Below, piece by piece: positions 25,732 to 63,951 of a stretch of DNA of 64,000 nucleotides. The translations under genes and the position numbers were made by a program. Position 1 is the stretch's first letter. Each line of letters opens with the position of its first letter. This DNA comes from a bacterium (lineage in GTDB: Bacteria > Electryoneota > Electryoneia > Electryoneales > Electryoneaceae). Under the pieces are notes generated by a model. That model worked only from the letters and a program-made list of their open reading frames with translations, did no database searches and was not told the origin of the DNA. Location of the stretch: the NCBI GenBank assembly GCA_963669175.1, contig OY769902.1, positions 2,720,001 to 2,784,000 of the forward strand. The letters are read 5' to 3'.

Positions 25732-27090
25732 ATGAGTACGAACACGGTGAGATTGCTACCTAAACGAGAATTGTCACGAGAAGTCTGGAAACTTTCCGGA
25801 CCGGTTGTGATCGGAATGATCAGCCAGACGCTGATGAATACGGTTGATACGGCCATGGTGGGCCGTCTCGGCGCTGCCCAGCTTGCAGCGACCGGGATGG
25901 GCGGGATCATGTGCTGGACCTTCATCGCCGGATTGGGCGCCCTGCACGTCGGCGTTCAGGCGATTGCGGCACGGCGTTTTGGCGAAAAGAAAATGCACGA
26001 AGCAGGCAAAGTGCTGGATAATGCGATCCTGCTGGCTGTCCTGCTTGGTTTCGGAGGAGCTGCGATTGTCATCCCGCTCCTGCATTTCCTGATGCCGTTC
26101 CTGGTAAACGATCAGGTCGTCGCAGGCTACACATCCGATTACATCGATTACCGTCTGATGGGACTGGTTTCCGTACTGCTGATCCGTGCCTTCATGGGCT
26201 TTTTCGATGGAGTCGGTCAGACCAATATGCACATGCGGGTAGCTATCCTGGCTAATGCGCTGAACCTGTTCTTCAACTGGATATTCATCTACGGCAACCT
26301 TGGGATGCCACGGATGGAAACCGGCGGTGCGGGAATCGCGTCCACGCTTGGGTCTACGTTTGGGGCGCTGTATTTCTTCCTGATGGCGTTGAAGAAGGAG
26401 CGGCGTGAACCCTTGCAGTATTTCCAGCCCGGAAACCTGAGCGGGTATGTCCGCAAACGGATCCTCCGGCTTGCTATCCCCTCAAGCATTCACGCGTTTC
26501 TCGTGATGCTCGGGTTCAGTGTATTCGTCACGCTGATGGCGCAACTGGGCACGATTGAAATGGCGGCGACAAACGTGGCGCATACCATTTCCTCATTGTC
26601 ATGGTTGCCCGGCGCGGGGATTGGGATTGGTGTCGCCACGCTCATCGGCCAGAAACTGGGCGAGAAGAATGCGCGGATGGCTGAAGAATATGGCTGGGAA
26701 GCGGTTCGCCTGGGCGTACTGATCATGGGAACCATGGGCGCGATTTATGTGATCTTCGCGCGGCCGGTCCTGGGATTGTTCTCCGATGACAGCATGGTTA
26801 TTGAGGCTGCTATTGTACCGTTACGGATTATCGGGATGTTGCAGATGTTCGATGCTGTCGGGATGGTGTTGAGCTTCGCGTTGGACGGCGCCGGCATGAA
26901 CAAATGGATCATGTGGACAGAAATTTCCATAAACTGGCTCCTGTTCCTGCCCTTGACCTGGGTACTCTCGTTCGTCTTTCCCTTCGGGGTCAATGGCGGA
27001 TTCGTGGCGATGGGATTGTATATCCTCGCCTTCGCCTTTATGTGCTTCCTGAAGTTCAAAGGGGGGAGCTGGAAACTGGCTGAAGTGTAA
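25732..27090 (+). CDS. MATE family efflux transporter
   Basis: VDTAMVGRLG...LAA, N.FFNWIFIYGNLGMP.M...GAGIAS, LIGQKLG, ~12 TM segments. Confidence 0.95.
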   Translation: MSTNTVRLLPKRELSREVWKLSGPVVIGMISQTLMNTVDTAMVGRLGAAQLAATGMGGIMCWTFIAGLGALHVGVQAIAARRFGEKKMHEAGKVLDNAILLAVLLGFGGAAIVIPLLHFLMPFLVNDQVVAGYTSDYIDYRLMGLVSVLLIRAFMGFFDGVGQTNMHMRVAILANALNLFFNWIFIYGNLGMPRMETGGAGIASTLGSTFGALYFFLMALKKERREPLQYFQPGNLSGYVRKRILRLAIPSSIHAFLVMLGFSVFVTLMAQLGTIEMAATNVAHTISSLSWLPGAGIGIGVATLIGQKLGEKNARMAEEYGWEAVRLGVLIMGTMGAIYVIFARPVLGLFSDDSMVIEAAIVPLRIIGMLQMFDAVGMVLSFALDGAGMNKWIMWTEISINWLLFLPLTWVLSFVFPFGVNGGFVAMGLYILAFAFMCFLKFKGGSWKLAEV

Positions 27091-27168
27091 ACGCTTGTGG
27101 ATTGCAGAATACTGGTTGAACAATTGATGAGGGATTGGCTGAAAGGTCAATCCCTTGCTTATGTTATG

Positions 27169-27211
27169 GAAAAACAAGGGACTGCCCCGTAGTGGTCTGT
27201 CCCTGTTTTTC
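27169..27211. repeat. GGGAC...GTCCC palindrome, possibly also the MATE terminator
   Basis: GAAAAACAaGGGAC...GTCCCTGTTTTTC. Confidence 0.6.
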
Positions 27212-27218
27212 AGGCTTG

Positions 27219-27349
27219 ACAGAGGATGACAGGATAGTAAGATGTCAAGGATAAAGACTCGATTGAATGTACAGGATGGTTAAGGATGGGAAGCTCACTT
27301 GAATGTACAGGATAGCAAGGATGGTAAAGATAGTAAGGATATAAAGATG
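27219..27349. repeat. Degenerate 9-mer (A/C)AGGAT repeats
   Basis: acaggatag caaggatgg taaagatag taaggatat; TTGAATGTACAGGAT occurs twice. Confidence 0.7.
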
Positions 27350-27523
27350 AAAATTATTGTACAGTCCGAAAGTCTTTACCGTTTCAGGTTAGCGGCAGCT
27401 TCTTTCTGGCACTGAACATCTTTCTTGTATAAGGGCCGGTTCTCCCCGATTGCACTCTTTTGAAAATATATTTACTTGTGTTAGCAGGCTTTAGCCTGCT
27501 CCTCTTAGCCCCCGGCTTTAGCC

Positions 27524-27919
27524 CTGTCTCTTGCTCACATCTTCGTGTTTCTGCCACCCCAGAGGGGGTGGTATATTTTAGCGTAGGGTTGACGCTGTCT
27601 GTTTAGCGTCTACCCTACGAAAAAGATCAAACCTTATCTCAACCCTGGAAGGGTTGCATAACGTATAATTTACACCCAATTGGTTTGTATAGAATATAAA
27701 ATGCGTTATTTCCTGTATTTATTGAACGTACTAATATGAATCGCGTATTATGCAACCCTTCCAGGGTTGATTATTCGTTAGAATACCTGACATAGTGTAC
27801 AGGCCAAACAGACGGCCTGTACACTATGCTAAAATAGGGAATCCCGCCGGGATTCTAAAAATGCTATGTCCACAACTCTTTTACTGATACAGCTTTCAGA
27901 AGATGTGGGTAAGAGACAG
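27524..27919. mobile_element. 396-bp non-autonomous MITE with IS50/Tn5-like ends
   Basis: TIRs CTGTCTCTTGCTCACATCT (27524-42) and AGATGTGGGTAAGAGACAG (27901-19); direct repeat GGCTTTAGCC at 27514-23 and 27920-29. Confidence 0.85.
27554..27855. repeat. Inverted doublet of AAACAGAC-loop three-hairpin elements inside the MITE
   Basis: - copy 27554-27657 (CGTAGGGTaGACGCT-AAACAGAC-AGCGTCaACCCTACG); + copy 27752-27855 (CATAGTGTACAGGCC-AAACAGAC-GGCCTGTACACTATG). Confidence 0.85.
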
Positions 27920-28261
27920 GGCTTTAGCCGGGGGAACAAGGACAACAACGGTTCGAGCGCCCTTCAGGGTGCTTTCTTGATTCGTATTGATTCTATAACG
28001 CAAAAGCACGCTAAAGCGCGCTCATAGCTTTTGTTATATCCATCCACCCGGCTAAAGCCGGGTGCTAAGAGGAGCCTGCTGAAGCAGGCTAGATACTGTC
28101 GAATCAGCAACAACTTTTGGGAATCCCTATAGTTCCCGAAAATCTTTACCGTTTCAGGTTGGCAGCAGTCTCTTTCAGCCTGCCTATGCGTCTTTTCTTT
28201 GCGCCTTTGTTGCCTGCTCACGAATTGTGTTGTCGGGGGGCTTTGCGTGAAATAATCAGGT

Positions 28262-28510
28262 TCAGATATACTGCATGAGTTGAATGGTCGTCTGCGCCTG
28301 GTTGTTCTGGGCGAAATGGGACGCAACCTGGTTAAAGAACTGGCCGACATGGACCAGAACATCCAGTAGGGTCAGATCATAATAGATGAACACGAATACC
28401 ATCAACCAGAATGAAATCGCCAGTGTCATCCCGGTCACGCCAAGCAGGGACACACGTCTTCCGGATCCTTGTTCGTCTTCCTGTGGTCTTCTGTTTGTTT
28501 TCAGATTCAT
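28262..28510 (-). CDS. Small membrane hypothetical protein
   Basis: GGGAGG RBS 5 nt before the ATG, single TM segment. Confidence 0.55.
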   Translation of the reverse strand: MNLKTNRRPQEDEQGSGRRVSLLGVTGMTLAISFWLMVFVFIYYDLTLLDVLVHVGQFFNQVASHFAQNNQAQTTIQLMQYI

Positions 28511-28749
28511 GGTTGCCTCCCAACACCTAATAAAAGAGAAAGCACATAGTGTGCCAGAGTGAGAAATTTGTGTAAATGCAGTAAGAGAAGCAAGAAAGGG
28601 GTGGTGGTGTGCGGTGCGGCTGTTCGCCTTCGAACGTCAGGTGTACGAAATCGGACATGAGAATCATCGTACTCAAGCATCTCTGGCAAAGAAGAACCAA
28701 TTCTGCTATATCAAGTTTTAATCTCAAAGAGGGGAAGCCTAAACTAGCC

Positions 28750-28779
28750 TTGACTTTCAGTGTTAGAAAACCCTAACTT
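28750..28779 (+). promoter_or_regulatory. Sigma70-like promoter overlapped by a DtxR/MntR-type palindrome
   Basis: TTGACT-18 bp-TAACTT; GTTAG-aaaacc-CTAAC at 28762-28777, upstream of the metal ABC operon. Confidence 0.55.
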
Positions 28780-28892
28780 TACTCCTGAAATTTTGATCAA
28801 TTCAGTCTTTTTCATGTTTCAGAATTCTGTATCGCCTACATTCAGGCACATGACGAGGCTGACAAATTCAGGCAGAAATCGGAGATTTACTC

Positions 28893-29840
28893 ATGTCTAA
28901 AAAGATACTGCTGTTCATATCCCTCGTTGCCAGCATCATTTTCGCGATATCATGCACCGGGGCAGGCAAAGGTGATATTGCATTGAGAAAAGTGCAGGTG
29001 GTGGCGACTACCGGCATGATCGGGGACGCCGCAATCAACATAGGTGGGGAACGTGCAGATGTTACCGTTCTCATGGGGCCGGGAGTTGATCCTCATTTGT
29101 ACAAGGCCACGGCTGGTGATGTCAGTCGCCTGTCTTCTGCTGATTTAATCCTGTATAACGGGCTTCATCTGGAAGGCAAAATGACCGAAGTCTTCGAAAA
29201 GATGGAGGAGCAGGTCACCACTGTCCCGGTGGGCGAGAACATCCCGGATGACAGGTTATTAACCCCGGCAGCGTTTGAAGGTTTTCACGATCCTCATGTC
29301 TGGTTTGATGTGGAGATGTGGAAATTTGCCGCTGAAGCGGTCCGTGACGGGTACAAGCAGGTAGACCCGACCCATGCGGAAATCTACGACCGTAACGCGG
29401 AAGAATACCTCGCCGGTTTAGATGCGTTGAATACCTATGTCCGTGAACAAGCTGAAAGTATTCCGCAGGATAAACGTGTTCTGATCACCGCGCATGATGC
29501 TTTCAACTACTTCGGTCGTGCATACGGTTTTGAAGTACGCGGATTGCAGGGTATCAGCACTGCCACCGAAGCGGGAACCGGGGATGTGCAGCAGTTATCA
29601 CAGTTCATTGCAGACCGTAAAATCCCTGCAATTTTTGTGGAATCATCTATTCCTGTCCGTAATGTGGAAGCGGTGCGGGAGGCAGTGAAAGCCAGGGGAT
29701 TCGGTGTTCAAATCGGTGGGGAATTATTCAGTGATGCCATGGGAGATGCGGGCACGGAAGAAGGAACCTATATCGGCATGGTGCATCATAACATCGATAC
29801 CATCGTACACGCCTTTAACAACAAAACGATTGTGGAATAG
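28893..29840 (+). CDS. troA: Mn/Zn ABC transporter substrate-binding lipoprotein (TroA/MntA)
   Basis: [55 protein letters not shown]. Confidence 0.93.
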
Positions 29841-49873: not shown

Positions 49874-51787
49874 CTAGGCGAGCGCTTTCATCACGCGTTC
49901 GTGAACCACATGTCCATACTCACGCCCTGCCAGCTTGTCCATAGCATAACTCATGGACAGGATTTCGTGCAATTCCGGTTTCTGGGGCCGTTCTGTACGT
50001 GCATATTTTACTGCTTCTTCAACGATGGCGTCTATTTCCGGATCGGATATTTCGATCCAGCCATTGTTCGTCAACAAGGTATCAAAAGGCACTTCAGGGG
50101 CTTCACACCAGGCGCTGACAAGATCAAACCAGATTTCACGTTTGGCTGTCCCGTTTGCAACTGCCTGCAGGAGTTGTTCCCAGTGCGCTTCGGTCATCAG
50201 GTTGACATCGACATCTTCACGCTTCAGATATGTACGAAGCCGGGTCAACACTTCCGCAGCGCGCATGGGTGGCACCTTGTACTCGTTGACAGCTTTCTCG
50301 AACATCCCGGCAAAGGGACTGATCGACAGGGTGCGCGCCATGTCTTCTGCGATTTCCAGCTCGAGGTATCGCGCTTCACGATCCCACGGTAATTCAGGAA
50401 CACGTTTCGCGGCCCGCTCGATACGGTCAGGTGTGACTTCCTTGGGGGCAGAGTCGGTATCGGGATACATACGATCTGCGCCGGGTAGCACACGTTCAAA
50501 GTCAGTCGTATTATCGCGCATCGCCTGACGGGTTTCGTTCGGTACGCCGGAGATGGCTTCATCCCAACGGATGAGAATTTCATTTGCGGCAGTAATCGTA
50601 TCCTCGTCCGGTCCCCAGACTGCCAGCACACTGTCATCCGCTGTGCAACCGGTGAAGTTGCAGAGGGCGTCCATATCATGCTGGTCGAGACCGCCGGTTT
50701 CGCCATCGGTATGCAGGATGTTCGGAACCTGGTCCAGGCATGCAATCACGCGCACACGACCACCGAGATCGTCCACGAAACGACGATTGCCGGTCAATGT
50801 ATGAGAAACGAGATCCTTTGATTTTGGGAGCTTGATCAGGCGGACAGTGTCGCCTGCTGCCAGCGCGGCCTGGAGCATGGGATGGTTCAGGGAAGAACTG
50901 TCGCCCTGCCAGACAAATACATCACCGGGACGGTCGCCCGGTTGGAAGCCACGCTTCTGTAATTCTGCGGCTATCTTCAGCAGGGATTCCTGTCTGCGGG
51001 CTTCGTGAGCGGTCATTTCCGGGATGCGCGGGAAACGCGGGACACCCTTGATTTCTACACGGGTGGAGCCTTCGATGCTGACATTCACATCCTGACGTCC
51101 GGCGCCGATACCACGGCGAACCAGTCCGGTTGCACGAAGCAGGCGACTGATGCGTTCAACACCTTCGGCCGCTTCTTCGGGAGTCTCGAACTGCTTTTCG
51201 GTCACCACTTCGATAAGCGGCATGCCAAGACGGTCAGCGGCGAATATGATACGGTGGCCGACATCGGCGATTTCACGGCAGGCATCTTCTTCCAGACCGA
51301 TCTGGATAACACGAACTTCCTTGCCATTCGCGAGCGGCAGGACACCATCGACACCGATGATGCAGGTACGCTGGAAACCGGTCGGAATGGAACCATCCAG
51401 ATACTGCTTACGGATAATGTGAATTTCGCCGACGATCTTGCACTTGAAAGCGAGCGCGATGGTCAGGGCAATATCAACCGCTTCATCATCAATCGGGAAC
51501 GGCGGGTTATCATCCATCTCATAGGTGCAGACTACGTCGCGATGGAGACGGTAGATGATTTCCTTTTTGGTCTTGAACTCCATGAGCGCAGTACCGTCAT
51601 ACACCCCCAGTTCGCTCATGGTCGGGCGCATGTGACGCAATACTTCGGAATGCCAGGTGTCGTGGTATTGCCCAGCAGGACATCGGCAAAAGAGTTTTCT
51701 CTTGGTGTCGATCTGATGGTGAATTTCAACGCCGCACTTGAATCCAAGCGCTTTCCAGTCTTCTGCAGTGCCCAGGATGTTGCTCAT
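49874..51787 (-). CDS. gatE: Glu-tRNA(Gln) amidotransferase subunit GatE (archaeal-type)
   Basis: CGVEIH.Q.DT..KLFCRCP, RPTMSELG, RK..LDGS..GFQRT, LEEDACR, DRLG.PL.EV.T, RRG.G..RQDVNVS, VPNETR, R.LPGADRMYPDTD; 637 aa with central insertion. Confidence 0.9.
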   Translation of the reverse strand: MSNILGTAEDWKALGFKCGVEIHHQIDTKRKLFCRCPAGQYHDTWHSEVLRHMRPTMSELGVYDGTALMEFKTKKEIIYRLHRDVVCTYEMDDNPPFPIDDEAVDIALTIALAFKCKIVGEIHIIRKQYLDGSIPTGFQRTCIIGVDGVLPLANGKEVRVIQIGLEEDACREIADVGHRIIFAADRLGMPLIEVVTEKQFETPEEAAEGVERISRLLRATGLVRRGIGAGRQDVNVSIEGSTRVEIKGVPRFPRIPEMTAHEARRQESLLKIAAELQKRGFQPGDRPGDVFVWQGDSSSLNHPMLQAALAAGDTVRLIKLPKSKDLVSHTLTGNRRFVDDLGGRVRVIACLDQVPNILHTDGETGGLDQHDMDALCNFTGCTADDSVLAVWGPDEDTITAANEILIRWDEAISGVPNETRQAMRDNTTDFERVLPGADRMYPDTDSAPKEVTPDRIERAAKRVPELPWDREARYLELEIAEDMARTLSISPFAGMFEKAVNEYKVPPMRAAEVLTRLRTYLKREDVDVNLMTEAHWEQLLQAVANGTAKREIWFDLVSAWCEAPEVPFDTLLTNNGWIEISDPEIDAIVEEAVKYARTERPQKPELHEILSMSYAMDKLAGREYGHVVHERVMKALA

Positions 51788-56883: not shown

Positions 56884-58437
56884 ATGCAACGTCAACGACC
56901 ATTAACCTGGATAATCGTTACCGGACTTCTGCTTTTGTTCTCCGGTCTTGGCTTCGCGCAGGAAGAACCCGCTGCCGAGCAGGGATTGTCGCTTGAAGCC
57001 ATTGACAGCATTGCGACTGCCGCTGAAACAGGCGACGAGATCGAAGCGGGGGAAGCGGCTATTGCGGAAGTTGCAGAAGAGACCGAACACCTGATTCAGA
57101 CTCATGATCTGGATACAAGCACTTCCTTTCTGCAACGTCTGACCGGGATTATCGGCGTCTTTGTCCTGATGGGGCTCGCCTTCCTGATGTCCCGCAACAA
57201 AAAGTCAATCAACTGGCGAACGATCCTGGTCGGTGTGGGGCTTCAATTCATTTTCGCGTTACTCGTACTGAAAACCCCGCCGGGACGCTGGATATTTGAG
57301 CAATCCCGTGAAGTCATAGTCCGGTTGCTGTCCTATGCGGATTATGGCGCTAAATTCATGTTCGGTGATTTTTATCTCAGTCATCCCGGTGTCGCCGCTT
57401 CGGTCGCGGATGACATCGCGCCGGGTGGTCTGATTCATGGTTTCCAGGTCTGGGATCCGGCCGGGCAATCCTTTGTCAGCCTCGGAACGATCTTCGCATT
57501 TCATGTATTGCCTACGATCATTTTCTTCGCCTCTCTGTTGGGAGTGTTGTATTACCTGGGAATCATGCAGCGTATTGTGCAGGTCTTTGCCTGGGTGATG
57601 AAACGGGCCATGGGGATCAGCGGTGCGGAATCCCTGTCGGCAGCGAGTAACATCTTTGTCGGGCAGACCGAAGCGCCGTTTGTGGTGAAGCCTTACCTGG
57701 GCAAGATGACCCTGAGCGAGATCATGGCGGTGATGACCGGCGGGTTCGCTACGGTCGCCGGGGGGGTGATGGCGGCGTATACACGCTTCGGCATGGACCC
57801 CGCTCACCTCATGGCGGCATCGGTTATGAGCGCGCCCGCAGCGATGGTCATGGCGAAAATGATTATCCCGGAAACGGAAACACCGGTCACTCGTGACGGC
57901 GCGAAAATTCATACCGAGAAAACGGCCTCGAATGTCATCGACGCTGCCGCATCAGGCGCTACGGACGGGCTCAAGCTGGCGGTGAATGTGGCGGCCATGC
58001 TGATTGCATTTATCGCTATCATCGCCCTGTTAAACGGTATCCTCGGCTGGGTGGGCGGCCTGTTCGGTTTCCCGCAGTTGTCGCTGAAGATGATCCTCGG
58101 CGTCGTCTTTTCACCAATCGCCTTGTCCATCGGCGTATCACCGAAGGATATGCTTGAAGTCGGTTACCTGTTGGGGACCAAAATCAGTTTAAACGAGTTT
58201 GTCGCGTTTATTGACCTGGCCGCACTGAAAGGCCAGATCAGCGACCGTAGCTTTGTCATCGCAACCTACGCCTTGTGCGGCTTCGCCAACCTGTCGTCCA
58301 TCGCAATCCAGATCGGAGGTATCGCCGCCCTGGTGCCGGAACGACGGAAAGACCTGGCCAAACTGGGCATGCGCGCCATGATCGCCGGCGCCCTGGCAAG
58401 CTGGCAAACCGCCGCTATCGCAGGGATTCTGCTCTGA
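56884..58437 (+). CDS. nupC: Concentrative nucleoside transporter (CNT/NupC family)
   Basis: VLPTIIFF, NIFVGQTEAP, MTGGFATVAG, NEFVA, YALCGFAN.SSIAIQIGG. Confidence 0.95.
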   Translation: MQRQRPLTWIIVTGLLLLFSGLGFAQEEPAAEQGLSLEAIDSIATAAETGDEIEAGEAAIAEVAEETEHLIQTHDLDTSTSFLQRLTGIIGVFVLMGLAFLMSRNKKSINWRTILVGVGLQFIFALLVLKTPPGRWIFEQSREVIVRLLSYADYGAKFMFGDFYLSHPGVAASVADDIAPGGLIHGFQVWDPAGQSFVSLGTIFAFHVLPTIIFFASLLGVLYYLGIMQRIVQVFAWVMKRAMGISGAESLSAASNIFVGQTEAPFVVKPYLGKMTLSEIMAVMTGGFATVAGGVMAAYTRFGMDPAHLMAASVMSAPAAMVMAKMIIPETETPVTRDGAKIHTEKTASNVIDAAASGATDGLKLAVNVAAMLIAFIAIIALLNGILGWVGGLFGFPQLSLKMILGVVFSPIALSIGVSPKDMLEVGYLLGTKISLNEFVAFIDLAALKGQISDRSFVIATYALCGFANLSSIAIQIGGIAALVPERRKDLAKLGMRAMIAGALASWQTAAIAGILL

Positions 58438-58590
58438 TTCACAAGATTCACAGGTATGATTCACAAGATGGACAGGATGAATTGATCAAGATGGACAGGA
58501 TGGGACGGATTGCTTGACTGGATGGGGGGATTTCTTAACAGGATAGGAATTTCCTGACAGGATGATAGGATAGAAGGATATCAAGGATAT
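58437..58590. repeat. Degenerate CA(A/G)GAT short repeats
   Basis: gattcacaagattcacagg...caagatggacaggatg (twice)...caggatgataggatagaaggatatcaaggat. Confidence 0.7.
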
Positions 58591-58754
58591 TCTTTCAGAT
58601 AGAACCGGAACTGACCGAAAGAGGTGGTTCCGGTTTATTATGGATGTAGAAAATGGGGACTGGCTCGCTTTTCCGTTGTGAAGGTTTAAGGCAAGCATTG
58701 AGGTCTACCTTCAAAACCAATAGCACTTGTTCTGACGAAAGCCCACGGGAAAAG

Positions 58755-58947: not shown

Positions 58948-59099
58948 CTCTCATCCCAGCGAAGCAAACTGTCTCAGAATCACTGATGCTCTCATCCCAG
59001 CGAAGCAAACTGTCTCAGATTAGAAAACACTCTCATCCCAGCGAAGCAGACTGTCTCAGAATCACTGATGCTCTCATCCCAGCGAAGGCTGGGATCCAG
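58948..59099 (+). repeat. 41-bp-period tandem of CTCTCATCCCAGCGAAG ending in a complete REP hairpin
   Basis: Units at 58948, 58989, 59030, 59071; the last reads ATCCCAGC-gaag-GCTGGGAT-CCAG. Confidence 0.9.
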
Positions 59100-59151
59100 G
59101 CAAGTGTCGACATAATAATAAGTTGGACTTTATTACGACTCTCAATGAACA

Positions 59152-60614
59152 CTCGGTTTTGTTGAATTACTCAGGTCTTGCAAAAAGTAAAAGGCATGGT
59201 TCATTTTACAACCAAGAAGATGTCCAAGTCTTTCAGGGTTGTAAAGGAGATAACCATGCCTGCCATAACATCGTCATTTTTTGAGTTACTTGCAAGTTTT
59301 CGTCCGGTGTTTCGGAAACCTGTTTATGAGAATTTTGTACTGTTGGCTATCGGCGCTGTATTGAATTTCGGTCGTCAGACAGTCTGTCAGTTATTACGTG
59401 TATTTCCCGGACCGGTTGAAAAGAGTTGGTCTTGTTATCACCATTTTCTTTCGTCTGCCAACTGGTCCGCCCTGAAACTGGCAAAGATTCTCTGCTCTTT
59501 GATACTTGATCAGATTGCCGAACGTGATCCGATCCTTCTGATCGTGGATGATACCCTGATCCGTCGTTGGGGAAAGCATGTTTACCAGATATCCGTTCAC
59601 CGCGATCCCGTCCGTTCGGGCAAAGCAGGGACAAAAGTCGTTTATGCTCGCGGTCTTCAATGGATGGTGATTTCGATTGGTTTGCGCACCCGTTATCGTT
59701 CGCAGATCTGGGCGCTTCCTGTATTCGTGTTTCCGGAGATCGCCAAAAAGCGTGTTCCGGAATCGAAGTACCGCAGTCCTGTACACCTGATCATTCTCGG
59801 GGCGCGTCTGCTGCTTCGATGGTTCCCGGACCGCCGTTTCCTTATCCTTGCCGACGGTACGTTGAACTCCCACGAACTTCACCGTTTCGTGGCGAAAGAG
59901 AACCGTCTTGCTATCATCGGGCATTCGCGTATGGATACGGTGCTGCATGATCCGCCGCCTCCACCGAACGGGAAACGTGGACGTCCGCGCAAAGTCGGTG
60001 ACCGTTTGCCCGCACCGGGACAAGAGGCGAAAAAGCCGGATGCTGCCTGGGAAAAAGCGTCTTGCCTCTGGTATGGGAACAAGACAAAAGACCTGTTGCT
60101 GCTTTCCGGTGTTGGCTGCTGGTACCGTTCCGGGGAAGATGTTGTCCTGATACGCTGGGTGGTGGCGCGTGATCCCGACGGCAAAAACAAGGACATTGTC
60201 TTATCTACATCCAAAACAGACTTAACCCCGGCCCAGGTTGTCAGCTCATATGTACGACGATGGGCGTTGGAAACCACGTTTGAAGAGTCACGGAAACATC
60301 TGCGTATCGAAACGACAGAAAACTGGTCAAAAAAATCGATTCAAAGAACAGTGCCCCTGCTGTTTGGCTTGTTCAGTCTGATGGTTGTTTGGTATAGTCA
60401 GCAGCCAGAGCAGAAAGCTGTTGCGCAAACAGAGTGGTACACAAAACTGGAACCCAGTTTCTCAGACGTGCATCAGGCATTGCGTGCTGAATTGTGGATG
60501 CAGGCGATTTTTCCCGAATGCAAGCAGCCACGCGGATTCTTAAAAAAGAAAAGCAATATCCTTAAATTCCTTATTCACAAAGCCGCTTGATCCGCTAAAA
60601 TGAGCAAAACCGAG
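59152..60614 (+). mobile_element. Insertion sequence (IS701-like/DDE_5), 1463 bp
   Basis: TIR CTCGGTTTTG / CAAAACCGAG; 8-bp direct repeat AATGAACA at 59144-51 and 60615-22. Confidence 0.9.
59256..60590 (+). CDS. DDE transposase
   Basis: IVDDT, ILADG, Y.RRW..E..F.E, KRGRPRK.G; AAGGAG RBS. Confidence 0.93.
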   Translation: MPAITSSFFELLASFRPVFRKPVYENFVLLAIGAVLNFGRQTVCQLLRVFPGPVEKSWSCYHHFLSSANWSALKLAKILCSLILDQIAERDPILLIVDDTLIRRWGKHVYQISVHRDPVRSGKAGTKVVYARGLQWMVISIGLRTRYRSQIWALPVFVFPEIAKKRVPESKYRSPVHLIILGARLLLRWFPDRRFLILADGTLNSHELHRFVAKENRLAIIGHSRMDTVLHDPPPPPNGKRGRPRKVGDRLPAPGQEAKKPDAAWEKASCLWYGNKTKDLLLLSGVGCWYRSGEDVVLIRWVVARDPDGKNKDIVLSTSKTDLTPAQVVSSYVRRWALETTFEESRKHLRIETTENWSKKSIQRTVPLLFGLFSLMVVWYSQQPEQKAVAQTEWYTKLEPSFSDVHQALRAELWMQAIFPECKQPRGFLKKKSNILKFLIHKAA

Positions 60615-60666
60615 AATGAACAGCGTTTCTTGAGAATACTTAACCTCTTGTAATATCGCAATATGA

Positions 60667-60737
60667 CTGGATCCCAGCCTTCGCTGGGATGAGAGTATGC
60701 CTATTTTACGACAGTCTGGAAGGCTGGGATCCAGGCA
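60667..60737 (-). repeat. Inverted partner REP hairpin plus a half copy
   Basis: CTGGATCCCAGCCTTCGCTGGGATGAGAG (60667-95) is the reverse complement of 59071-99; GAAGGCTGGGATCCAGGCA near 60720. Confidence 0.88.
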
Positions 60738-60839
60738 GGTAGCAACAAAATAACCAGTTGGATACTCATTGCGACTCTTCATTTACCGTGCCTCTTGAAA
60801 GCACTCAAATGGTTATATTATCATAATATAACAGGTTTT

Positions 60840-60985: not shown

Positions 60986-61131
60986 TTTTTCGCAGAAGAT
61001 GAGTCGCATTCACAAACACCGAATCACATGAAATTCGTGCTTTTACTACCACATGCTTATTGATCTGAGCCGTTACGATTTTATACCTTACCCAATCAGC
61101 TATCCTCCAACCCCAAATCGTGAGGAATCTT

Positions 61132-63951
61132 ATGGCAAGCGCCACCCTCATAGCGAAGAAGCCCATTTCCGCACTGAATCGTAAAGTGAACTTTGCTTAC
61201 GGAAAACTTTTTGCTGGTTTAACCGGTGCAATAGCAGGTTCAGCAACACAGAATTGGACTACTGCTGCTAAATCAACTATCGATGCCATTTTTTCGGTTT
61301 CTTTGGAAAAACTGAAGCTGGATGAAGTGGCGTGGTTGCTGATCCAACGTTCTATGGTACGCGCCACCTTTGACCTGCTCGAAGACAGCCGTCTGACTCT
61401 GGAAAAACAGAAACCGGAAAACGCGGAAAAAGAACTGGCGAAACTGGATTTCTCCTTTCAAGAAACAGAAATAGAATTGAATTCGGACTTCTTTGACTAC
61501 CCCGCACGTTTGCCTTACCTGAAAACCTTCCAGGATGTCCTGCTGCAATGGTTGGAACCCTACGGTGTGTCTGTTCCCGATAAAAAGGCGATTGTGGCAC
61601 GTTTGGGCAGCTATTTCGCCTTTGCTTTGGTTCGGGAATGGCGTGATAAACCAGATGTATATAATATCCTGAAGAGAATTGAGACACCTTTCACCAAGGC
61701 GGAAAACCGTGAGTTGGCATGGCGGTCGCACCGGGCCTACCTGCAACGCCAAGTCCAGGAAAACATGATGGATGAAGCCTTCGGGTTGGAGAAAGTCTAT
61801 ATCGATTTGCGTGCTTATTATTTCAAGAAAGAAAAACAATCGGAATACGATGAAGAAATGGAAGAAAGACACGTTAAAGATGCCGAGAAGCATGTGGTCA
61901 TGTTGCAGGATGAGCTTGAAAAATGGATGCGGAAATCAGATCGAAAAGATGCCTTGCGCGTGATCAGTGGCGGACCGGGCAGTGGTAAATCATCCTTCTG
62001 CAAAATGTTTGCCGCAACCATGTCAGGAAAACACCCGGACATCAACTTCCTTTACATCCCTTTGCACCATTTTAAATGCGAAGGCGAACTGATGTCATCT
62101 ATAGAGGAATATGCTCAGACACACAAATTCAGCCGTTTTGAACAGAATCCAGCAGACAAGCTCAAAGAAGATGAAAGAGTTTTTATCCTGTTTGATGGGT
62201 TGGATGAATTATCCGAAGCTGGTAAAGGTTCGCGAGAAGTTGCGCAACAATTTATGCAACAACTAGTCAATCAATTGTCAGATTGGAATGAATCCTACAT
62301 TAATGTGCAAGTGCTTGTATCTGGACGTGAAGTGGCAGTACAAGGTCAAGAGCAATTCTTCAAGAAAACCAGACAACTGTTTTTCCTGTTGCCCTATAAC
62401 TTGACAGAAAATGAGCAAAATGAATATCAAGGCAGAAAGGCTTTGATTACCAGGGACTTTCGCGATGATTGGTGGAAGAAGTATGGAGACGCCTTGGGAA
62501 AAGAGTATTCAACATGTCCGGATCGATTGAAGGAAAAAGATTTCGAAGAGATCACAACTCAACCTTTGCTAAATTACCTGGTCGCTGTTGCTTATGATCG
62601 TGGGCATCTGAAACTGGACGGTGATATCAATATCAACGATGTTTACCGTAGTCTGTTGGAATCAGTTCATAAGAGAGGTTACGAAGATTCACCTCATAAA
62701 GTGCTACAGGATATAGAGTTGAAAGACTTCAAAATCATCTTAGAAGAAATCGGACTTGCAACATGGTATGGTGATGGGCGAAAAACAACTGTGAAAGCTA
62801 TTGAACAAGTTTGTGAGCGCAATAACAGAAAACGCCTGTTGGATAAATTTAAAACTGGATCAGAATCAGGAGCATCGCGTTTGCTACTGGCATTTTTCTT
62901 CAGGAAAGAAGGGAATCAAGGTGGTGATGATGCCACTTTCGAATTTACGCACAAGAGCTTCGGGGAATACCTGGCTGCCAAACGTATAGTGCGAAATGTT
63001 ATCCAGATTGATCGTGATAGGACTAAAAAGCGGGATGACTATGACGATCTATACAACATCAAGGATAAACTGATCGAATGGACGAGGCTTTGCGGACCTG
63101 CCGAATTGGATATCTATATCCATGCATACGTATGCAATGAAATGAAGATTATCGGAAAGGAGAATTTGGAAATAGTCCAGTCGTTCCAAAACACTCTGCT
63201 GGAATTATTCAATGCAACGCTGCAAATGGGTGGAATGCCAATTGAGAAGGTCGTTGACGATAGACTGAAGACGCACCTGGAAGCACAAAAGTGGGTATGC
63301 CGTGCGGAAACAGCCTTGTTGGGTGTGTTAAATGCATGCGCAAGAACCACTGGAAATCCGGTTGAAATCCAGTGGCCCAAAAGAAACTCGATGAAAAATT
63401 GGTTGCATAAACTATCCTGTTTGAACGATAAAGAAGAGGATGAATCTCTGGTTGTTCATCAATACTTTTCCTATTGCCATATGGGAGATCACATCTTGAT
63501 AACAAGATGTGATCTCCCATATGGCAATTTCTACAAATCGGACCTTCGTGGCGCGTACCTTGTTGGCGCGGACCTTGTTGGCGCGGACCTTGTTGGCGCG
63601 GACCTTCGTGGCGCGCACCTTCGTGGCGCGCACCTTGAGCGCGCGTACCTTCGTGGCGCGTACCTTGAGCGCGCGGACCTTGTTGGCGCGTACCTTCGTG
63701 GCGCGTACCTTGAGCGCGCGTACCTTCGTGGCGCGTACCTTGAGCGCGCGAACCTTTATGGCGCGAACCTTCGTGGCGCGTACCTTGAGCGCGCGAACCT
63801 TTATGGCGCGAACCTTCGTGGCGCGAACCTTGAAGGCACTGATCTAACTGATGTTAAAAACTTCACCCAGGAACAATTCGATTCTGTCAAATCCTACGAT
63901 GAGAATACCAAAACTCCCCCCCACATTAAGCGCAAGAAACACAAGCCGTAG
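61132..63951 (+). CDS. NACHT-type STAND NTPase with C-terminal pentapeptide repeats
   Basis: Walker A GGPGSGKS, Walker B LFDGLDE, PLL, FEFTHKSFGEYLAA, A(D/Y/H/N)LxG/RA pentapeptides. Confidence 0.92.
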   Translation: MASATLIAKKPISALNRKVNFAYGKLFAGLTGAIAGSATQNWTTAAKSTIDAIFSVSLEKLKLDEVAWLLIQRSMVRATFDLLEDSRLTLEKQKPENAEKELAKLDFSFQETEIELNSDFFDYPARLPYLKTFQDVLLQWLEPYGVSVPDKKAIVARLGSYFAFALVREWRDKPDVYNILKRIETPFTKAENRELAWRSHRAYLQRQVQENMMDEAFGLEKVYIDLRAYYFKKEKQSEYDEEMEERHVKDAEKHVVMLQDELEKWMRKSDRKDALRVISGGPGSGKSSFCKMFAATMSGKHPDINFLYIPLHHFKCEGELMSSIEEYAQTHKFSRFEQNPADKLKEDERVFILFDGLDELSEAGKGSREVAQQFMQQLVNQLSDWNESYINVQVLVSGREVAVQGQEQFFKKTRQLFFLLPYNLTENEQNEYQGRKALITRDFRDDWWKKYGDALGKEYSTCPDRLKEKDFEEITTQPLLNYLVAVAYDRGHLKLDGDININDVYRSLLESVHKRGYEDSPHKVLQDIELKDFKIILEEIGLATWYGDGRKTTVKAIEQVCERNNRKRLLDKFKTGSESGASRLLLAFFFRKEGNQGGDDATFEFTHKSFGEYLAAKRIVRNVIQIDRDRTKKRDDYDDLYNIKDKLIEWTRLCGPAELDIYIHAYVCNEMKIIGKENLEIVQSFQNTLLELFNATLQMGGMPIEKVVDDRLKTHLEAQKWVCRAETALLGVLNACARTTGNPVEIQWPKRNSMKNWLHKLSCLNDKEEDESLVVHQYFSYCHMGDHILITRCDLPYGNFYKSDLRGAYLVGADLVGADLVGADLRGAHLRGAHLERAYLRGAYLERADLVGAYLRGAYLERAYLRGAYLERANLYGANLRGAYLERANLYGANLRGANLEGTDLTDVKNFTQEQFDSVKSYDENTKTPPHIKRKKHKP
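63473..63528. repeat. Perfect 26-bp inverted repeat within the coding sequence
   Basis: ATTGCCATATGGGAGATCACATCTTG-ataa-CAAGATGTGATCTCCCATATGGCAAT. Confidence 0.97.
63541..63840 (+). repeat. 15-bp VNTR encoding pentapeptide repeats
   Basis: 19 units NACCTTNNNNGCGCG plus one degenerate unit. Confidence 0.97.

Follow-up and report, generated by a model that had tools for sequence, protein, structure and literature searches.

A transposase-less element with IS50-type ends inserted in the loop of a GC-rich hairpin in an Electryoneota genome

The locus

The element described here lies in a 64-kb stretch of contig OY769902.1 (assembly GCA_963669175.1, positions 2,720,001 to 2,784,000) from a bacterium of the Electryoneota lineage. 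This stretch, referred to as the window, represents ~1% of a ~5.45-Mb genome, and positions are counted from its first nucleotide. A 1.8-kb intergenic region of the window, located between a MatE gene and the operon of a ZnuA-type ATP-binding cassette (ABC) transporter, contains an array of GC-rich hairpins. One of these hairpins is split by a 396-bp element (27524-27919) that has inverted ends and no transposase. An earlier note on this DNA had described the locus as a set of nested elements, in which a sequence with Tn5/IS50 ends had inserted into a repetitive extragenic palindrome (REP) and carried a further REP doublet. The structure of the element, its target site and its relatives in other genomes are described below, and the features of the locus are listed in Table 1.

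Structure of the element

The left 19-nt end of the element reads CTGTCTCTTGCTCACATCT (27524-27542), and the right end, on the minus strand, reads CTGTCTCTTACCCACATCT (27901-27919). The two are identical at 17 of 19 positions, and both run on inward with TTC to form inverted ends of 21 nt. Comparison with the 19-nt mosaic end of Tn5 gives 16 identical positions for the left end and 17 for the right, the same values as in the earlier note. A pattern representing these ends, CTGTCTCTTNNNCACATCT, has 16 fixed positions and is expected 0.47 times in the window when up to three mismatches are allowed. It is found twice, both times with no mismatches, in inverted orientation and 396 bp apart. The window contains no further copies of the ends, nor another copy of any segment of the 1.8-kb intergenic region, and a blastn comparison of the element with a plasmid collection gave no match.

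The interior has no coding capacity. The longest open reading frame (ORF) fully within the element is 38 aa, and tblastn with five Tn5-like transposases found no match in the element or in the 64-kb window (best window E = 0.40), nor any trace of transposase coding sequence inside the element. The element is also strongly structured. When the left half is aligned to the reverse complement of the right half, 126 of 236 aligned columns are identical, and the alignment score of 28.5 compares with -10.4 (standard deviation 5.2) for shuffled sequence. As single-stranded DNA the element is predicted to fold with -91.5 kcal/mol (z = -12.35). The palindrome is nested, with the 21-nt ends followed by a 44-nt pair (27574-27617 and 27793-27836, 77%) and then by a 23-nt pair. 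Two long internal hairpins carry AAACAGAC or its complement in their loops. These correspond to the cargo doublet without an ORF of the earlier note; the hairpins and the absence of any longer reading frame agree with that description, but with 4 matches versus 2.09 expected, the 8-mer AAACAGAC shows no enrichment in the window. Small size, terminal inverted repeats, a flanking duplication and the lack of a transposase are the features of a MITE (miniature inverted-repeat transposable element), and the 396-bp element has all of them.

No known RNA family is matched in the window at gathering score. The sole match in E-value mode, to whalefall-1 (E = 0.93), was treated as noise. The window likewise contains no transfer RNA or transfer-messenger RNA gene.

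The target hairpin and the outer array

The element is directly abutted on both sides by the 10-bp direct repeat GGCTTTAGCC, the two copies of which are identical. With the element taken out by coordinates, the flanks form a perfect hairpin of 20 nt, in which an 8-bp stem carries a TTTA loop (-10 kcal/mol, DNA parameters). Both the duplication and the restoration of a palindrome upon removal of the element had been proposed, and both hold. The split hairpin had been placed in the middle of an outer doublet; it is instead the inner one of the two hairpins in the outer structure's left arm. The outer doublet itself is present as described, with inverted arms of 42 nt that are 86% complementary.

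Hairpins of this kind are concentrated at the locus. There are 15 perfect hairpins with a 4-nt loop and a stem of at least 7 bp in the window, compared with 1-7 in shuffled sequence. Those that are GC-rich and of the target type number four, all at this locus, and the four exact copies of GGCTTTAGCC in the window all fall between 27487 and 28059. Short GC-rich extragenic palindromes that cluster in alternating orientation are a trait of REPs and bacterial interspersed mosaic elements (BIMEs), and the hairpins here (27483-27500, the restored 20-mer, 28045-28064 and 28073-28090) stand in mirror order within an intergenic region. REP families are described as having >100 dispersed copies per genome (PMC2817692). 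Because all copies of GGCTTTAGCC and all of the GC-rich hairpins sit at one locus, the hairpins within the 64-kb window constitute a local array, and a dispersed REP family is not demonstrated there. A Pfam scan of 53 ORFs of the window found no REP-type tyrosine transposase (RAYT), the enzyme associated with REPs. Such an enzyme was considered as the mobiliser of the element and rejected, since the ends are of IS50 type and a duplication is present. The idea that the element may disperse hairpin elements is not supported; its cargo and target hairpins differ in type, and neither has a second copy in the window.

The outer structure could itself be an older palindromic MITE, ~204 bp long without its insert, in which case one MITE would be nested in another and the IS50-type element would target the sequence of the older one. 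In keeping with this, the outer structure ends in inverted arms of 42 nt, its fold is a single long palindrome, TA bounds it on both sides, and the rest of the window lacks its hairpin motif. However, TA is itself palindromic and may belong to the arms, no target duplication beyond TA is visible, and the window has no second copy to show mobility. The corresponding target hairpins in a Calditrichaeota metagenome-assembled genome (MAG), described below, also have different surroundings. A nested MITE seems somewhat unlikely.

A promoter and terminator scan of 27000-28950 identified 10 terminator-like hairpins versus 1.9 expected. This excess reflects the richness of the region in hairpins and carries no functional claim. 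The copies of a 41-nt direct repeat (27366-27406 and 28136-28176, 88% identical) lie on either side of the whole hairpin array, one 76 nt and the other 45 nt from its ends; this repeat is the target duplication of neither element.

Table 1. Features of the intergenic region and its neighbours (positions in the window)
Feature	Position	Strand	Remarks
MatE gene	25732-27090	+	One side of the intergenic region
Outer palindromic array, left arm	27482-27523		Hairpin 27483-27500 and the split hairpin
Split target hairpin, left part	27509-27523		CCCCC stem side and duplicated 10-mer; empty-site model
Target-site duplication, left copy, GGCTTTAGCC	27514-27523		Directly abuts the element
Non-autonomous IS50-type element (MITE)	27524-27919		396 bp; overall imperfect palindrome
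Left terminal inverted repeat, CTGTCTCTTGCTCACATCTTC	27524-27544	+	End-pattern search; IS50 comparison
Internal long hairpin, left copy of AAACAGAC doublet	27577-27624		Inverted-repeat search
Innermost inverted repeat, 23 nt	27639-27661 and 27748-27770 (span 27639-27770)		100%; surrounds AT-rich centre
Internal long hairpin, right copy of AAACAGAC doublet	27791-27828		15-bp perfect stem
Right terminal inverted repeat, CTGTCTCTTACCCACATCTTC (minus-strand reading)	27899-27919	-	End-pattern search; IS50 comparison
Target-site duplication, right copy, GGCTTTAGCC	27920-27929		Directly abuts the element
Split target hairpin, right part	27920-27934		Duplicated 10-mer and GGGGG stem side; empty-site model
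Outer array, central imperfect inverted pair	27955-27975 and 28003-28023 (span 27955-28023)		86%
Outer palindromic array, right arm	28050-28091		Hairpins 28045-28064 and 28073-28090
Possible ORF, 82 aa	28262-28510	-	Between the element and the ZnuA-type operon
ZnuA-type ABC transporter operon	28893 onward	+	Other side of the intergenic region

Kinship of the ends to IS50

Insertion sequences (IS) of the IS50 subgroup of the IS4 family are given by De Palmenaer et al. as 1350-1550 bp long with direct repeats of 8-9 bp, and Table 1 of that work lists the end consensus CW------Y---CA-A--W- with 5'-CT ends (PMC2266710). Both ends of the window element satisfy 7 of 7 fixed positions of the tabulated consensus.

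The reference was an IS50-type element (L045) carried by an E. coli plasmid. It is 1539 bp long with a 9-bp duplication (GTTCCGAAT), and its transposase matches the Tn5 transposase in the PDB at E = 6e-300. The outside end of this element is CTGACTCTTATACACAAAT and the inside end is CTGTCTCTTGATCAGATCT, with the transposase stop codon falling within the latter. The left end of the window element is identical to the inside end at 17 of 19 positions and to the outside end at 13, and the right end at 15 and 14, respectively. Because each is closer to the inside than to the outside end, both ends of the element are of the inside type. The complement of the left end reads AAG ATG TGA (K-M-stop), as at the end of the transposase remnant of locus L004 described below. 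The right end has TGG where the left end has the stop-codon position.

Related ends in other genomes

A contig collection was scanned with CTGTCTCTTNNBCACATCTTC, in which B was chosen to exclude the mosaic end itself. Tn5-like transposase coding sequence adjoins the match in 12 of the 44 loci identified (L001, L003, L004, L006, L011, L012, L014, L017, L018, L036, L039 and L044). The complete IS copies among these are ~1.5 kb in length with 9-bp duplications. In L006 a 472-aa ORF contains the Pfam domains Tnp_DNA_bind and DDE_Tnp_1 and matches the PDB Tn5 transposase at E = 3.7e-104. Over 472 aa, the transposases of L006 (Legionella pneumophila subsp. fraseri) and L012 (a Candidatus Babeliales MAG) share 99.8% identity, which points to either a recent transfer between amoeba-associated bacteria or a binning error.

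Locus L004 derives from an uncultured bacterium (GC 0.51) and has a protein with a type IX secretion system (T9SS) tail next door. Its end is identical to both window ends at 18 of 19 positions and directly adjoins a frame-broken remnant comprising the last ~115 residues of a Tn5-like transposase, which terminates as ...TTAMKM-stop inside the repeat. The 64 in-frame residues of this remnant, used as a query, retrieve full-length proteins of 459-464 aa with Tn5 domains; these intact relatives are known as proteins without DNA context. One protein, P0137, matches the Tn5 transposase at E = 3.9e-95 and has the C-terminus ..KKM. The proposed link to an IS4/IS50-like transposase thus stands insofar as this type of end occurs beside Tn5-like genes elsewhere, but a trans-acting partner in the present genome is unproven, with none in the window.

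Seven of the 44 loci are MITE-like and without transposase, three from a Calditrichaeota MAG and four from a Gammaproteobacteria MAG. The Calditrichaeota copies (L033, L034 and L040) are ~366 bp in length and, like the window element, palindromic overall. Their end, taken from L040, is identical to the right end of the window element at 19 of 19 positions. This family has moved recently, because its copies are mutually identical at 352 of 366 positions. The Gammaproteobacteria loci (L021, L029, L031 and L037) hold short elements of ~150-360 bp that start with CTGTCTCTTGGTCACATCTTCCCC and have degenerate partner ends. One of them, L031, is flanked by a 9-bp duplication that has one mismatch. 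They constitute another transposase-less family with IS50-type ends.

In three loci (L002, L023 and L027) there is a GAT-type end only, with no transposase seen in the sequence examined. A further 16 of the 44 have neither an inverted partner end nor similarity to a transposase (L005, L008, L009, L010, L013, L015, L016, L019, L020, L022, L026, L028, L032, L038, L042 and L043), and these are probably chance or in-gene matches.

The remaining matches bear on whether the window element could be a Nextera/Tn5 mosaic-end adapter or an assembly artefact built into the contig. Six of the 44 loci (L007, L024, L025, L030, L035 and L041), all from high-GC actinomycete assemblies, are likely adapter debris. 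Five of these lie within ~90 nt of a contig end, and some have a tail such as ...CGAGCCCACGAGAC in L007, which we take to be Illumina adapter read-through. The window ends do resemble the mosaic end, at 16 and 17 of 19 positions. However, they differ from it and from each other, and they are separated by 354 bp of structured, non-adapter sequence. They also lie inside a long (5.4-Mb) contig and between the copies of a perfect 10-bp duplication, where the joined flanks restore a hairpin, and the matching end type is found in unrelated assemblies, both beside natural transposase remnants and in MITEs. An artefact is very unlikely. The pattern characteristic of Nextera contamination, an exact 19-nt mosaic end with adapter and usually at a contig end, was considered and is not what the locus shows. 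As a separate observation, the six adapter-like loci are error-laden, and in L041 a mosaic-end-like sequence forms an internal palindromic junction.

The genome of the window belongs to a lineage that itself carries Tn5-type IS elements, because Candidatus Electryonea clarkiae encodes an IS4 family transposase (P0141), which is 52% identical to the matching transposase P0121. The GyrA protein encoded in the window shares 78% identity with its counterpart in Ca. Electryonea clarkiae (Fibrobacteres-Chlorobi-Bacteroidetes (FCB) group, Ca. Electryoneota), the nearest named relative of the host, 72% with that of a Calditrichota MAG and 64% with that of KSB1; further relatives of this GyrA reach 79-88% identity. 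The T9SS sorting domains encoded in the window agree with the FCB group.

Target sites of the related copies

Target-site information is available for four MITE copies. The window copy is flanked by GGCTTTAGCC on both sides within CCCCC...GGGGG, and L040 by GACTGAAGTC on both sides within CCC...GGGGG. The flanks of L034 are GGCTGAAGCC and GGCTGAGGCC, which differ by one mismatch, and L033, at a contig end, has a left flank only, GTCTTCAGAC, following CCCCGG. In all three copies with both flanks (window, L040 and L034), 10-bp direct repeats abut CTG...CAG. In 4 of 4 copies, positions 1-3 of the 10-mer pair with positions 8-10 around a 4-nt loop, within a CCC..GGG stem. Pairing at three positions has a chance of 1/64 per site by simple arithmetic. 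Tabulation of targets for further copies had been suggested, and it places the Calditrichaeota copies at loop-centred palindromic 10-mers. The proposed targeting of REPs is thus supported as to the hairpin-loop site, seen in all three Calditrichaeota copies, but not as to a dispersed REP family. An insertion at the same palindrome position in every copy is the criterion of a 'type 1 association' as formulated by Tobes and Pareja (PMC1525189), and 4 of 4 copies in this small sample show it.

The length of the duplication depends on where the element is taken to start. In every copy C precedes CTG and G follows CAG. If this flanking C and G were part of the element, the duplication would be 8 bp and the ends one base longer, and the palindromic target makes 8 and 10 bp indistinguishable. 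By homology, 10 bp is the better reading, because the duplications of Legionella-type and IS50-type elements place the element start at CTG.

The Legionella-type IS (~1.5 kb, 9-bp duplications) has a related end, CTGTCTCTTGATCACATCTTC. In 8 of 10 loci (L001, L003, L006, L011, L014, L036, L039 and L044) it is found, by eye, at one position of a recurrent ~21-nt motif, in either orientation. The exceptions are L012, with mixed flanks, and L017, which differs. The pattern of the site, also by eye, is a GCCCCC stretch, the 9-bp duplication and then AAAGAG. This IS appears to be a site-specific relative of Tn5.

The location of these copies might instead reflect retention, with insertions occurring anywhere, no preference for hairpins, and survivors remaining in neutral extragenic hairpin arrays. 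Every copy seen is intergenic, and there are four sites only. Tn5 target choice is also described as a preference rather than a strict requirement, its targets having a preferred 9-bp sequence, palindromic sites and G-C pairs at the repeat ends (PMC1525189). Retention would account for an intergenic location, but not for 4 of 4 sites, from two genomes, being centred to the base on the loop of a palindromic 10-mer. Nor would it account for the Legionella-type IS lying at one position of its motif in 8 of 10 loci. Retention bias is a distinctly improbable explanation.

Interpretation

The earlier description is supported in its central point, that a transposase-less element with IS50-type ends was inserted by transposition in the loop of a GC-rich hairpin. 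We consider it likely that the 396-bp element is a non-autonomous derivative of the IS50 subgroup of the IS4 family, mobilised in trans and with a target preference for hairpin tips. A Tn5-like DDE transposase, made elsewhere, would bind the two ~21-bp ends, pair them, and excise the element by cut-and-paste, a route that is established for Tn5. The element would then be pasted into a short palindromic GNC-N4-GNC site at the tip of a CCC...GGG hairpin. The cuts in the two target strands would be 10 bp apart and symmetric around the centre of the loop, and gap repair would produce the 10-bp duplication; with the flanking C and G counted as part of the element, the cuts would be 8 bp apart. An even-numbered stagger fits a symmetric dimer acting on an even-centred palindrome. 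The form recognised could be either the duplex sequence or an extruded hairpin, and the sequence alone cannot tell which. We infer that the choice of target belongs to the transposase and that the insertion brings no benefit to the host.

Several observations weigh against this interpretation. There is one copy of the element and no Tn5-like transposase in the 64-kb window. The contig collection that was scanned does not include this genome, and none of the best 120 of 641 relatives of P0121 (E <= 1e-20) is encoded on a contig of the length reported for it, 5,447,365 bp. The window element and the Calditrichaeota MITE show no significant similarity in their interiors (scores of 14 and 13 versus 1.6 +/- 6.7 and 8.2 +/- 5.7 for shuffles), and only the ends link the two. 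The target sample consists of four sites in two genomes, and the flank of L004, GACTTCAGAC, pairs at only 2 of 3 positions. A 10-bp repeat is outside the 8-9 bp listed for the IS50 subgroup (PMC2266710, Table 1), and the two IS50-type elements that could be measured have 9-bp duplications. Finally, the element may no longer be mobilisable, because its ends differ at 2 of 19 positions.

Some of these observations would equally suit a dead fossil, an IS50-type element that lost its interior long ago and whose matching transposase is gone, leaving a single-copy relic at a hairpin site that was a one-off. The single copy in the window, the lack of a Tn5-like transposase there and of one on a contig of this genome's length among the best 120 of 641 transposase relatives, and the drift of the ends to 17/19 mutual identity all fit this explanation, and the remnant in L004 is an example of the decay of such an element at its site. 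However, the 10-bp duplication is still perfect, which argues for an insertion that is not very old. The absence of a transposase remnant inside and the foldback-like palindrome are MITE-like, unlike a recent deletion derivative. In addition, the sister family of the Calditrichaeota MAG has several copies, which are 96% alike, and the identical target geometry at 4 of 4 sites means that the hairpin site is no one-off. A fossil thus appears improbable, and a trans-mobilised, hairpin-preferring derivative of the IS50 subgroup remains the explanation that we favour.

The consequence for this genome is probably small, with one neutral insertion between the MatE gene and the possible small minus-strand ORF. 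The insertion site is upstream of the ZnuA-type transporter operon.

A broader and more tentative proposal, which we hold to be possible rather than probable, is that in one branch of Tn5-type transposases the loose Tn5 preference for palindromic G...C sites has become an almost site-specific capture of the tips of CCC...GGG hairpins, with GNC-N4-GNC at the apex. The even-numbered target centre would force a 10-bp rather than a 9-bp stagger, and the branch, with its MITEs, would occur across the FCB group (Electryoneota and Calditrichota), alongside a parallel site-specific branch among the Legionella-type IS. In molecular biology, Tn5 serves as the standard 'random' transposase. If the proposal is true, natural relatives of Tn5 that aim at a short palindrome or hairpin would show how target choice can tighten within this fold, and the IS50 subgroup would be a further group of IS for which REP-like palindromes act as safe places to insert. 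In annotating genomes, it is also worth noting that a sequence close to the Nextera mosaic end within an assembly may belong to a genuine mobile element rather than to contamination.

Other features of the window

The motif ACAGGAT is present in 23 copies in the window versus 8.0 expected, a number reached in 0 of 100 shuffles. It is clustered at 27229-27313 and 58472-58563, and the ACAGGAT-rich intergenic stretches (27200-27350 and 58430-58600) are both located just past gene ends. The two regions share a 31-nt stretch at 87% likeness.

The only transposase gene in the window encodes a DDE_5 (IS701-like) protein (59178-60590, within the region 58990-60740) that is unrelated to Tn5. This gene is bracketed by inverted hairpin copies of ATCCCAGC-GAAG-GCTGGGAT (59076-59095 and 60671-60690) and preceded by three copies of CTCATCCCAGCGAAG. 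After the IS50-type element, this is the second case in the window of a mobile element that is accompanied by a hairpin motif.

A NACHT/pentapeptide-repeat ORF (61120-63951) contains, in frame, a perfect palindrome (63473-63528) whose 26-bp arms surround an ATAA centre. Part of this palindrome, GATCACATCTT, resembles an IS50 end, probably by chance. A GatB-like ORF (49874-51787, 637 aa) matches GatB_N over residues 17-456 against a profile of 277 positions, and this span suggests a large insertion in the catalytic domain.

Comparison with known elements

REP-targeted IS are documented for five families, among them the IS4 family with ISRm22 (PMC1525189). All copies of ISRm22 in Sinorhizobium meliloti are reported to lie in REPs, mostly in REP clusters, on the palindrome axis and with 6-bp repeats (PMC1525189), and the element is assigned to subgroup IS4Sa (PMC2266710). 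It shares with the window element an IS4-family origin and a position at the palindrome axis of REP-like repeats. It differs in being autonomous, of subgroup IS4Sa and flanked by 6-bp repeats, whereas the window element is non-autonomous, IS50-type and flanked by a 10-bp repeat. Specificity for REP/BIME palindromes is also described for IS1397 and ISKpn1 of the IS3 family and for ISPpu9, ISPpu10, ISPa11 and IS621 of the IS110 family (PMC1525189, PMC12288879). These have unrelated transposase families, the IS110 group using an RNA-guided DEDD recombinase as described, and none of them is given Tn5-type ends in these sources.

Bacterial MITEs such as QMITE2 of Coxiella and Chunjie of Geobacter are characterised as small, intergenic, structured and transposase-less (PMC10969869). 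The window element resembles them in these respects and in having terminal inverted repeats and a target duplication. An IS50-subgroup MITE, or a Tn5-type element targeting hairpin loops, was not seen in the titles and abstract openings found, with subscription journals mostly outside the search.

Like IS50 and Tn5, the window element has ends that start with 5'-CTG and are of a type tied to transposases matching solved Tn5 transposase structures. Its target duplication is palindromic with G and C outermost, as described for Tn5 (PMC1525189). In contrast to IS50, it has no transposase gene, and it has two inside-type ends in place of one inside and one outside end. Its direct repeat is 10 bp (or 8) rather than 9, and it is located at a precise hairpin tip, whereas the target preference of Tn5 is loose. 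As a palindrome-targeting IS derivative the element is of a known kind, because REP-targeting IS are already known and one of them is from the IS4 family; its variant features are the two inside-type ends, the 10-bp repeat and the hairpin-tip precision.

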